Shown in pieces: positions 466 to 2,046 of a stretch of DNA of 2,046 bases. Numbering within the stretch: the first letter of the stretch is position 1; each line of letters starts with the position of its first letter. The notes under the pieces are model-generated. The model worked only from the letters and a program-made list of their open reading frames with translations. It was not told the origin of the DNA and did not search any database. The DNA comes from Escherichia coli (GTDB lineage: Bacteria; Pseudomonadota; Gammaproteobacteria; Enterobacterales; Enterobacteriaceae), in assembly GCF_036507355.1 (NCBI RefSeq), contig NZ_AP027885.1; one strand, written 5' to 3'. The position numbers and the translations under genes are program-made.

Positions 466-900
466 TTAGGTTCTGCCGCCCTGTATAACGCTGAGGCCGT
501 TTTTTAGTGCTTTCTTGTGGTTGCTGACAGTACCTTTCCAGCCAAACTGAGGGTTCAGACGGTAACTGTAACTGCGCCCTACTTTTGGGCCTTGAAGAAT
601 CACGGATAGGTCAATTAGCGCCTTAACCGAACGGCTTACATTGGTTTTCTGCATACCTAAAGCGTCGGCAATATCGGCTTGGGCAATTTGGATGTAATTT
701 TCATAATCGAGATCAGCTAACAGCATCATCAAGACTTTGAATTGCTCCCCTGTGAGGGTCTTAGCAAGGATCTTTAAAGCGTCTTGGTTCATAGTGAAAT
801 GCCTCTCAAAAGCTGACTTCTGTTTGGGTCGGATAACTGCGACAAAACTACCTACCTCTTCCCCTGTAGCAGTGTCTATCTGAGTAATTCGGTTACTCAT
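466..900 (-). CDS. 144-aa predicted winged-helix/HTH DNA-binding protein; candidate small plasmid replication initiator (RepL-like) or autoregulatory repressor
   Basis: ATG is the reverse complement of 898-900 and the TAA stop is the reverse complement of 466-468. An RBS GGGAGAG lies 8 nt upstream (rc of 907-913). The protein has an HTH-like segment (GEQFKVLMMLLADLD...IQIAQADIADALGMQKTNVSRSVKALIDLSVI). The gene has lower GC than its flanks. Palindromic repeats sit in its promoter region. The Rep-versus-regulator call is inference. Confidence 0.75.
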   Translation of the reverse strand: MSNRITQIDTATGEEVGSFVAVIRPKQKSAFERHFTMNQDALKILAKTLTGEQFKVLMMLLADLDYENYIQIAQADIADALGMQKTNVSRSVKALIDLSVILQGPKVGRSYSYRLNPQFGWKGTVSNHKKALKNGLSVIQGGRT

Positions 901-972
901 TTAAGAGGCTCTCCCAAAAAAATAGTTATCAATAATGATAACAACGTTATCAATAATGATAACTATCGTCAA
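901..972 (-). promoter_or_regulatory. Promoter/RBS region of the - strand gene, overlapped by operator-like repeats
   Basis: On the - strand: RBS GGGAGAG (rc of 907-913); -35-like hexamers TTGATA (rc of 927-932 and 948-953) and TTGACG (rc of 967-972); only weak -10 candidates (e.g. GATAAC, rc of 925-930). Exact promoter elements are uncertain. Confidence 0.4.
925..963. repeat. Two tandem 18-bp direct repeats (GTTATCAATAATGATAAC), each internally palindromic, 21-bp register; candidate operator or iteron array
   Basis: Seen in sequence: 925-942 and 946-963 are identical. Each is GTTATCA-ATAA-TGATAAC, and the 3-bp spacer AAC creates a further 7-3-7 inverted repeat between units, giving four alternating heptamers in total. 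Confidence 0.9.
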
Positions 973-1106: not shown

Positions 1107-1196
1107 TTCCGCTTCCTCGTTCAGGCTGTTCGTTCCTCGCTGCGCTGCGGTACGCCTCAGCCTGACCTGCGGCGAGCGGCGCGTGCTCTTTCAAAG
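1107..1196. other. Segment resembling the primosome-assembly / single-strand initiation (pas, n'-site) region found downstream of ori in ColE1/pMB1-type plasmids
   Basis: Hand comparison with the pUC/pBR322 sequence recalled from memory. Colinear exact blocks: ttccgcttcctcg (1107-1119), ctcgctgcgct (1136-1146), ctgcggcgagcgg (1167-1179), and a 9/11 match ctctttcaaag (1186-1196), with insertions between blocks. Needs confirmation by alignment. Confidence 0.35.
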
Positions 1197-1216: not shown

Positions 1217-1258
1217 TCGTCAAGGGCGAGCGTAGCGAGTGCCATTTACCCTTGACGA
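1217..1258. repeat. Inverted repeat with 10-bp perfect arms (TCGTCAAGGG / CCCTTGACGA) and a 22-nt loop, in the leader upstream of the relaxase gene
   Basis: Seen in sequence: 1217-1226 tcgtcaaggg and 1249-1258 cccttgacga are exact reverse complements. The right arm contains a TTGACG -35-like hexamer (1252-1257). Confidence 0.6.
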
Positions 1259-1382
1259 TTCACCGGATAAAACAGGCTTGGCAGTGGTGGGGGGTGGCGC
1301 GGAGCGACGCCTTCCACCTGCCAGACTGCCGTTGATTTTGACCTTCTGGCAGCTTGCTGCCCGAACGATTTTGCGTAGCAAA

Positions 1383-1413
1383 GTCTAGTGAGTACACTAT
1401 CATCCTGATAGTG
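1383..1413 (+). promoter_or_regulatory. Candidate oriT core / relaxase operator: nested inverted repeats sharing arms, about 70-95 nt upstream of the relaxase start
   Basis: Seen in sequence: TAGTG (1386-1390) - AGTA - CACTA (1395-1399), overlapping the 8-3-8 palindrome CACTATCA (1395-1402) - TCC - TGATAGTG (1406-1413). Alternative hairpins with shared arms are typical of MobV-type oriTs. A possible weak promoter overlaps: -35 TTGCGT (1371-1376), -10 TACACT (1393-1398). The functional assignment is inference. Confidence 0.35.
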
Positions 1414-1480: not shown

Positions 1481-2046
1481 ATGGCGAATTACGCGATAAT
1501 GCGCTGCAAAAAGCTGACGGGAATGGGCAGTGTGGCCAGCGCTTTGCAGCACTGCTACAGGGAGCGTGAGACGCCGAATGCTGACGCTGAACGGACACCA
1601 GAAAACTACTGCTCTGTGTCTCAGTCGGCAGATGAGGCGATGGGAAAGCTGCGGGAGCTGTTGCCGGAAAAACGCCGTAAAGATGCGGTACTGGCTGTTG
1701 AATACGTTATGACGGCAAGCCCTGAGTGGTGGAACGAGGCCACACCGCGGCAGCAGGCGGAGTTTTTCGCCCGTTCTGAGCAATGGCTGGAGAACAAATA
1801 CGGGAAAGATCGCGTTGTGGCGGCGGTGGTTCACAGGGACGAGGCCACCCCGCACCTGTCTGCGTTCGTGGTGCCATTGACGCAGGATGGGCGGCTGTCC
1901 GCGAAAGAGTTTATTGGCGGGCGGTCAAAGATGCGTGACGATCAGAGCACCTACGCTGAATCGGTAAAAAAACTGGGTCTTGAGCGCGGCATCGAGGGAA
2001 GCCGTGCCACGCATCAGACAGTTCAGCACTACTACGAATCGATAAA
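1481..2046 (+). CDS. mob: MobV-family (Mob/Pre, pMV158 MobM-like) plasmid mobilization relaxase, N-terminal relaxase domain; 3'-truncated by the window edge
   Basis: ATG at 1481 is preceded by the RBS. The frame is open through nt 2046 (188 codons, hand-translated, no stop), which is why it is absent from the ORF track. The translation (MANYAIMRCKKLTGMGSVASALQHCYRER...RKDAVLAVEYVMTASPEWW...AAVVHRDEATPHLSAFVVPL...LERGIEGSRATHQTVQHYY) matches, from memory, the conserved MobV blocks: the N-terminal M-x-Y-x-V-x-R-x-Q-K region, an HNER-like motif, the RKDAVL block and the HxDE..PH metal-binding motif. Confidence 0.9.
   Translation, partial: MANYAIMRCKKLTGMGSVASALQHCYRERETPNADAERTPENYCSVSQSADEAMGKLRELLPEKRRKDAVLAVEYVMTASPEWWNEATPRQQAEFFARSEQWLENKYGKDRVVAAVVHRDEATPHLSAFVVPLTQDGRLSAKEFIGGRSKMRDDQSTYAESVKKLGLERGIEGSRATHQTVQHYYESI

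Follow-up and report, generated by a model that had tools for sequence, protein, structure and literature searches.

Which function resides in the spacer between the rep gene and the relaxase gene of a small Escherichia coli plasmid, and on which DNA strand is it encoded? The question is raised by a stretch of 2,046 nt (contig NZ_AP027885.1), which was analysed at its full length and is called the window throughout. A preliminary description had read positions 1107-1196 as a ColE1/pMB1-like primosome assembly signal, i.e., a single-strand initiation (ssi) element, and had placed it between a repeat array and a relaxase gene of the MobV type. Here the homology, the structure, the active strand, the relatives, and the probable role of this element are described.

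Results and Discussion

The plasmid and its genes

The window is a complete small circular plasmid, as judged from end-to-end matches with 95-100% identity to several 2.0-kb plasmids of Escherichia, Enterobacter, and Klebsiella, and from a reading frame that continues across the junction of its ends. This reading frame is mobV, a single open frame of 322 codons. The only other gene is rep, and because there are just these two genes, all cis elements must fall in the 580-nt spacer from 901 to 1480 (Table 1). The G+C content of the plasmid is 53%. The domain matches of the Rep protein are weak but specific (Pfam RepL with E=7.5e-5, MarR_2 with E=3.2e-5), and tblastn revealed relatives of Rep in 273 plasmid records, including 1.5-kb Col(MG828) plasmids. 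The matches to Pfam RepL and NCBIfam MobV bear out the earlier view that the ssi resides beside a MobV gene in a replicon that differs from ColE1 and is of the Rep/iteron type. The primer and antisense RNAs of ColE1 are absent, as had also been proposed: an Rfam search of the window up to E=1 returned neither RNAI nor RNAII, and its one match was a chance match to a miRNA. Two further contigs of 2046 bp that were retrieved in a genome scan (L038 and L063) turned out to be unrelated to the window plasmid upon comparison.

Table 1. Features of the 2,046-nt window. A slash within the oriT sequence denotes the predicted nick.
Feature	Position	Strand	Remarks
rep gene	466..900	-	144-aa winged-helix (wHTH) protein, RepL-like
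Two identical 18-nt repeats, GTTATCAATAATGATAAC	925..963 (925-942, 946-963)		each an imperfect palindrome
Predicted ssi hairpin (phiX174/ColE1-ssiA type)	1107..1179	-	active strand 5'-CCGCTCGCCGCAGGTCAGGCTGAGGCGTACCGCAGCGCAGCGAGGAACGAACAGCCTGAACGAGGAAGCGGAA-3'
Basal stem, 3' half, AGCGG within GAAGCGG (1109-1115)	1109..1113	-	pairs with 1175-1179
Variable middle stem, 3' arm	1121..1128	-	pairs with 1158-1165; perfect 8-bp inverted repeat I3
Apical hairpin module, plus-strand spelling CTGTTCGTTCCTCG-CTGCGC-TGCGGTACGCCTCAGC	1126..1161	-	common to elements with other basal arms
Variable middle stem, 5' arm	1158..1165	-	pairs with 1121-1128
Basal stem, 5' half, CCGCT	1175..1179	-	covariation alignment
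Second conserved hairpin, 10-bp stem TCGTCAAGGG/CCCTTGACGA, loop CGAGCGTAGCGAGTGCCATTTA with TAGCGA	1217..1258	+	lower confidence than the main element
Candidate MOBV oriT, AAGTCTAGTGAG/TA, then inverted repeat CACTATCA/TGATAGTG	1381..1413	+	predicted nick 1392/1393
mobV relaxase gene	1481..2046, continuing across the window ends to 403	+	322 aa; NCBIfam MobV 163.6 bits

The two 18-nt repeats are presumed to be Rep-binding sites and to serve as origin and rep operator, and they overlap with a minus-strand site that resembles a promoter for rep. Both repeats are surrounded by a 36-nt imperfect inverted repeat at 907-981, and this inverted repeat together with the 18-nt repeats is probably the Rep operator and origin. 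For pKL1 an oriV with Rep sites upstream of rep has been described (PMC3832669). More hairpins are found between the 18-nt repeats and the ssi, at 976-1011 and at about 1049-1078.

Homology to the ColE1 primosome assembly site

Three exact words had been reported to be shared with the region just downstream of the pBR322/pUC origin, and all three are present, TTCCGCTTCCTCG at 1107-1119, CTCGCTGCGCT at 1136-1146, and CTGCGGCGAGCGG at 1167-1179. The minus strand of ColE1 (NC_001371) contains both 13-mers in exact and colinear form, at 1352 and 1309, and, except for a single mismatch, the 11-mer. In the pMB1/pBR322-type variant TTCCGCTTCCTCGCTCACTGACTCGCTGCGCTCGGTCGTTCGGCTGCGGCGAGCGG all three words are exact; a genome-wide pattern scan found this variant in 23 contigs. 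A BLASTN comparison of 1090-1210, which had been suggested as a check, yielded a gapped match to ColE1 (75/110 identities, E=7e-7 in 6.6 kb), which is located 95-185 nt downstream of the RNA/DNA switch if the RNAII start is taken as 641. The n'-pas of ColE1 lies about 150 nt downstream of ori. In pBR322-type origins this position is that of ssiA, or n'-pas, a PriA-dependent primosome site, and in ColE1-type plasmids ssiA is exposed by leading-strand synthesis, when Pol I extends the primer (PMC3167613).

A covariance model was trained only on 29 distinct ColE1-type elements of 56 nt, and no window-type sequences were included. This model matched 1107-1179 on the minus strand with 37.7 bits (E=4e-7 in 156 kb), and the match spans the whole model, positions 1-56. 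The BLASTN and covariance model E values together confirm that the homology to the n'-pas (ssiA) of ColE1/pMB1 is real. The range 1107-1196 has to be shortened: the structured element extends to about 1179-1182, while 1183-1196 is a flank that is conserved only in close relatives. The closest relatives of the window element are not ColE1/pMB1 but members of a subfamily that has the same basal arms and a different apical hairpin. Matches of the genome scan in non-enteric assemblies (Streptomyces, Myxococcus, Cutibacterium, and others; loci L008-L117) were set aside. They are short contigs with the exact 56-mer of the pUC/pBR322 ssiA, and most likely represent contaminations with cloning vectors.

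Structure of the hairpin

The window element is an imperfect hairpin of roughly 73 nt. Its layers are a 5-bp basal stem with the motif GAAGCGG, an internal loop with mismatches, a middle stem that covaries, and an apical hairpin that is conserved. The same layers are seen in aligned examples from pYC (Col3M), IncX5, IncN, IncFII-like, Pantoea, and Arsenophonus plasmids. In these examples the arms CGCTTCCTCG ... GCGGCGAGCG are conserved, the middle stem varies in sequence and retains its complementarity (TCAGG/CCTGA, TTTGG/CCAAA, TTTTG/CAAAA, CACGG/CCGTG), and the apical part, CTGTTCGTTCCTCG-loop-TGCGGTACGCCTCAGC, is highly conserved.

A metagenome scan was anchored on the apical part, which left the arms unbiased, and it gave at least 98 distinct contexts. 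The covariation alignment comprised 47 distinct window-like elements in minus-strand orientation, and their RNAalifold consensus is one long imperfect hairpin. Among these 47 relatives, 97.9% of the cells at the predicted pairs are paired, and compensatory changes occur in five pairs; the middle stem has four pairs with such changes. The covariation score is 0.183 compared to 0.058+-0.007 in shuffled alignments, none of which (0/500) reached it, and it is 0.02-0.05 in controls with slid partners. The four inner pairs of the basal stem are essentially invariant. Its outermost pair covaries and is A-T in 36 elements, C-G in 10 elements including the window, and G-C in one element. The final G of GAAGCGG varies within a covarying pair, so that relatives have GAAGCGT or GAAGCGC; GAAGCGG itself occurs once in the window. 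The apical helix is invariant in the alignment because the search pattern had fixed it, and covariation is uninformative for this part. The window was also checked for a terminator-like structure at the element, and none was found.

The active strand

The strand test made use of wobble pairs, because a G.T pair becomes an A.C mismatch when the opposite strand is read. For the predicted pairs of the 47 relatives, the strand with GAAGCGG, i.e., the minus strand, has 17 G.T pairs versus a single A.C mismatch, which assigns the folding to the minus strand. ColE1-type elements served as a positive control, because their active strand follows from the replication mechanism and is the displaced, RNAII-sense strand. 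The control gave 16 G.T versus no A.C with the same polarity. The calculated DNA fold has -19.8 kcal/mol (z=-2.28) for the minus strand and -15.8 kcal/mol (z=-1.09) for the plus strand. phiX174 has the motif AAGCGG in its F-G spacer, where the viral strand carries it. Judged from the pattern of wobble pairs, it is the complement of the given sequence that is functional, and selection acts on the minus strand.

Probable exchange of hairpin modules among plasmids

A query of 121 nt matched 741 places in 574 plasmid records, and no annotated feature lies beneath the element among the matches listed. Elements with the same apical hairpin are present in the Col3M plasmid pYC (171-250) and in IncX5, IncN, IncF-like, Pantoea, and Arsenophonus plasmids. 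They have the basal arms, the apical core, and the covarying middle stem in common with the window element, to which they are 80-92% identical over 70-100 nt. They differ from it in the loop, which has 6 or 12 nt, in the outermost pair, which is A-T or G-C instead of C-G, and in the replicons in which they reside. The apical hairpin of the window element is absent from ColE1 and F. In metagenomic plasmid contigs the apical core was seen in at least three outer contexts, i.e., combined with two or more further kinds of basal arms. Sequence comparison thus characterizes the window element as a chimera of ColE1/F-type basal arms and an apical hairpin from other plasmid elements.

The apical core (1126-1161) also recurs without any change in two or more further types of long imperfect hairpins, class B and class C (loci L123-L242), and several metagenomic contigs have two to three copies of it. 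One class C copy (L209) precedes an IncFII-type repA gene by about 570 nt. F-type tra operons contain class B copies in the interval from trbC/traU to traW (L137 and L122), where they sit on the strand expected to be transferred.

Sister plasmids of the same replicon family carry identical arms at an equivalent position, together with different inner hairpins (L246 814-878, L249 691-756, L248 988-1045, L020 863-918). A ColE1-like inner hairpin is present in a Shimwellia contig, the replicon of which is 68% identical, and in a 1506-bp Col(MG828) plasmid. A third type of inner hairpin is present in a plasmid of 2042 bp as well as in a record with a Rep protein 100% identical to that of the window. 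These differences between sister plasmids point to a cassette exchange of the ssi. Such cassette exchange has been described in reviews for the lagging-strand origins of small plasmids (PMC5703833). These findings indicate that basal and apical hairpins are exchangeable modules from which enterobacterial plasmids compose their primosome assembly sites. Both the chimeric architecture and the active-strand assignment appear to be absent from the literature surveyed.

Candidate oriT and a second hairpin

The sequence at 1381-1394 is the sole match in the window to the contact/nick sequence of MobM of pMV158, with a chance expectation of 0.08. This candidate oriT precedes mobV by 89 nt, and its nick sequence is followed by an 8-bp inverted repeat (I5). 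MobM of pMV158 contacts AAGtaTAGTGTG next to the G/T nick (AAGtaTAGTGTG/TT), and the mobM coding strand is the one transferred (PMC5863519). By analogy, MobV is expected to transfer the plus strand, on which the ssi is present as its inactive complement.

The second conserved hairpin (1217-1258) lies between the ssi and the candidate oriT. Its loop contains a 14-mer, CGAGCGTAGCGAGT, that is identical to the inner loop of the ColE1 ssiA, and the motif TAGCGA at 1233-1238, the first base of which varies in relatives. TAGCGA is the CS-6 of ssoA (PMC6395029); in ssoA-type origins CS-6 reads TAGCGT/A and occupies the terminal loop of a hairpin, next to an RSB element elsewhere in the origin. Of RSB, the window has a weakly similar stretch only. 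Stem and loop match a hairpin of Gram-positive (Enterococcus/Lactococcus) rolling-circle modules with cat-mobV at 33 of 37 positions, with a modest E value of 6e-3; that hairpin is located about 105 nt downstream of mobV and has the same orientation relative to mobV. One family variant has a G.T pair on the plus strand. These similarities suggest that 1217-1258 may be a candidate single-strand origin, or conversion signal, for the strand transferred by MobV.

A wider reading is that the plasmid has two back-to-back signals on opposite strands, a PriA-type signal on the strand displaced by Rep and an ssoA-like signal (1217-1258) on the strand transferred by MobV, with the apical hairpin as an independently exchangeable module. 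We regard this combination as tentative and rather doubtful. If it were true, the MOBV module would bring its own conversion signal across phyla, and the apical module would define at least three classes of single-stranded DNA signals on enterobacterial plasmids, including the transferred-strand copies in F-type tra operons.

The region between the second hairpin and the candidate oriT also contains an 8-bp inverted repeat (1318-1352) that reads CTGCCAGA/TCTGGCAG and encloses a loop of 19 nt, and upstream of it there is a G-rich run, GGTGGGGGGTGG (1287-1298).

Probable role in plasmid replication

Read from 5' to 3', the minus strand carries the ssi (1179 to 1107), a hairpin-bearing region, the 18-nt repeats (963 to 925), and rep (900 to 466). 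The distance from the ssi to the 18-nt repeats is about 140-144 nt, and that to the start of rep is 207 nt. Relatives of the ssi also adjoin rep genes (Col3M, IncN, and other replicons). There are seven cases in which the rep coding strand carries the ssi upstream of rep, namely, the window, the Col(MG828) plasmid, pYC, the Arsenophonus plasmid, a 60-kb Klebsiella plasmid, the RepFIB of F, and the left flank of ori2/repE of F. In IncN the ssi is downstream of repA, and its 3' side still faces the origin region. The arrangement of ColE1, in which the ssi is on the displaced lagging-strand template and the origin is 5' of it on the active strand, is not that of the window, where the repeats and rep are 3' of it, just as at RepFIB and at ori2 of mini-F. 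The preliminary description had seen a parallel to the ColE1 order ori-pas-bom-mob. This parallel exists on paper only: the origin is on the opposite side, and the strand transferred by MobV is predicted to be the other one. With a minus-strand polarity of the ssi and a predicted transfer of the plus strand, the gene-order parallel fails.

The minus strand of 1107-1179 is most likely a primosome assembly site of the PriA type (phiX174-type, n'-pas or ssiA-like) for the vegetative replication of a small Rep/iteron plasmid. The one ground on which we infer its PriA dependence is the homology to the ColE1 ssiA. According to this model, Rep would act on the 18-nt repeats (925-963) and would open or nick the origin, and the minus strand would become single-stranded. 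The exposed minus strand would fold into the hairpin 1107-1179, PriA would bind to the hairpin, and PriB, DnaT, and DnaC would load DnaB on the minus strand. DnaB would then travel 5'->3' toward and through rep, and DnaG would make primers.

Two variants of this model can be envisaged. In the first variant, replication would start between the ssi and rep, with nicking or strand displacement through rep, and the ssi would be a single-strand origin just upstream of the leading-strand start, which is exposed last. This is plausible because RepL/pSN2 plasmids are rolling-circle replicons and the Rep proteins of pHW126-like plasmids nick DNA. In the second variant, the plasmid would have a theta origin, and the ssi would be on the leading-strand template of the fork that moves towards mobV, a position that the sites flanking ori2 of mini-F also appear to have. 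It would prime that template and would load DnaB for the fork through rep. Both variants fit the order 5'-ssi-repeats-rep-3'. By analogy to pHW126-like plasmids, in which the loss of the ssi leads to multimers and a raised copy number, the ssi is probably an accessory and dispensable element.

It could be argued that the ssi primes the synthesis of the strand complementary to the MobV-transferred strand in the recipient, as does the sso of pMV158 or the second site of ColE1. Such a role in conjugation would be in agreement with the distance of only about 200 nt to the candidate oriT, with the occurrence of this apical hairpin in elements of F-type tra operons, where it is on the presumed transferred strand, and with the need of pMV158 transfer for lagging-strand origins, which reportedly emerged from a study of that plasmid. 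However, pMV158 transfers the coding strand of mobM (PMC5863519), and the MobM-like site of the window is on the plus strand while the ssi folds on the minus strand. In addition, the same type of ssi is present in mob-less 1.5-kb relatives such as Col(MG828). As transfer is predicted for the plus strand and the ssi is active on the minus strand, a role in conjugation is unlikely.

An involvement of the element in the action of Rep itself, as a nick site or double-strand origin or as another Rep-binding site, or a function as a multimer-resolution site, would explain why multimers and a higher copy number result from ssi loss in pHW126, pIGRK, and pIGMS31, and the ssi fragment of pIGRK and pHW126 has incompatibility properties. 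This is nevertheless distinctly unlikely. The same arms occur beside unrelated initiators (ColE1 RNAII, RepE, RepFIB, IncN RepA), which argues that the element is not Rep-specific, and the Rep nick of pIGMS31 is just upstream of CR and within the minimal origin, while the ssi is outside of the minimal origin. A resolution site is opposed by the lack of a XerCD/cer core: a search of the window for XerC-spacer-XerD, with up to three mismatches allowed, gave no match.

A further possibility is that the element functions as an ssi without PriA, either by G4-type priming with DnaG alone or by RNA polymerase priming, as at ssoA or Frpo. Signals of the phiX type and the G4 type were reportedly found to be interchangeable by Masai and coworkers in 1990. 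The loop motif AGCGCAGCGAG also resembles the CS-6 region of ssoA. However, the homology is to the ColE1 ssiA, which is PriA-dependent, and the stem contains no promoter-like hexamers, and thus we consider priming without PriA to be highly improbable. It is hardly credible that the ssi is a leftover without function from recombination with a ColE1-like plasmid: recombination among small enterobacterial plasmids is frequent and the shared words are short, but covariation and strand-specific wobble pairs show that the hairpin is under selection, its position has been retained across a replicon family that has diverged to 68% identity, and relatives occur in the 574 plasmid records.

With a PriA-type site on the minus strand, the active-strand assignment predicts the direction or the mode of replication for very common cryptic plasmids of 1.5-2.5 kb, i.e., the Col(MG828)/pKL1-like family and its MobV derivatives. 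The result annotates a feature for which the plasmid matches listed carry no annotation. It does not imply a new mechanism, and the element would be an ordinary accessory of small enterobacterial plasmids.

Comparison with known systems

The n' (PriA) site of phiX174 in the F-G spacer resembles the window element in that the hairpin is on the strand that needs complementary synthesis and in that AAGCGG is on the active strand. The phiX174 site has no significant sequence similarity to the window element and no match with the covariance model R1. In R6K, neither a regular expression nor the covariance model detected an element of the ssi type.

The ssiA of ColE1/pMB1 (pBR322, pUC) has basal arms that are identical to those of the window element, CCGCTCGCCGCAG ... 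CGAGGAAGCGGAA on the active strand, and the pMB1 variant also shares the loop motif AGCGCAGCGAG. Both are imperfect hairpins with the same polarity of the folding strand. In contrast, the ColE1 ssiA has 56 nt and the window element has 73 nt, because the inner 47 nt of the latter form a different and longer apical hairpin. ColE1 is an RNAI/RNAII replicon with the origin 5' of the active strand, whereas the window plasmid has no RNAI/RNAII, encodes a Rep protein, and has its presumed origin at the 3' side.

The F plasmid (NC_002483) contains three elements with the basal arms of the window element, at 48029-48084, 49564-49617, and 38074-38129, which match the ColE1-type covariance model with 50.8-58.2 bits. 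None of the three is annotated in the record NC_002483. The first two flank ori2/repE and point towards ori2, and the third is found upstream of RepFIB's rep gene. Imber, Low, and Ray reportedly described a primosome assembly site at ori2 of mini-F in 1983. As in the window, the F site upstream of rep is on the rep coding strand with iterons in between. The F elements differ in having a short, ColE1-like inner part (52 nt), and ori2 has one element on each side, whereas the window has a single one.

In the plasmids pHW126, pIGRK, and pIGMS31, an ssi-like palindrome is followed by a conserved region, iterons, and rep. These plasmids encode a wHTH Rep, and pHW126 and pIGMS31 in addition have a MOBV relaxase. 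Experimental deletion of their ssi has shown that it is non-essential and that its loss leads to multimers and a higher copy number. By their published description, the module order, the RepL-related wHTH Rep, and, in pHW126 and pIGMS31, MOBV resemble those of the window. The differences are four repeats and a G+C content of about 31% in the pHW126-like plasmids versus two repeats and 53% in the window. The preliminary description had pointed to the combination of a pas-type ssi with MobV rather than with a MobA/MbeA-type relaxase. With these three plasmids as a precedent this combination is not unusual, and a wHTH Rep, a MOBV relaxase, and an ssi-like palindrome are already known to occur together.
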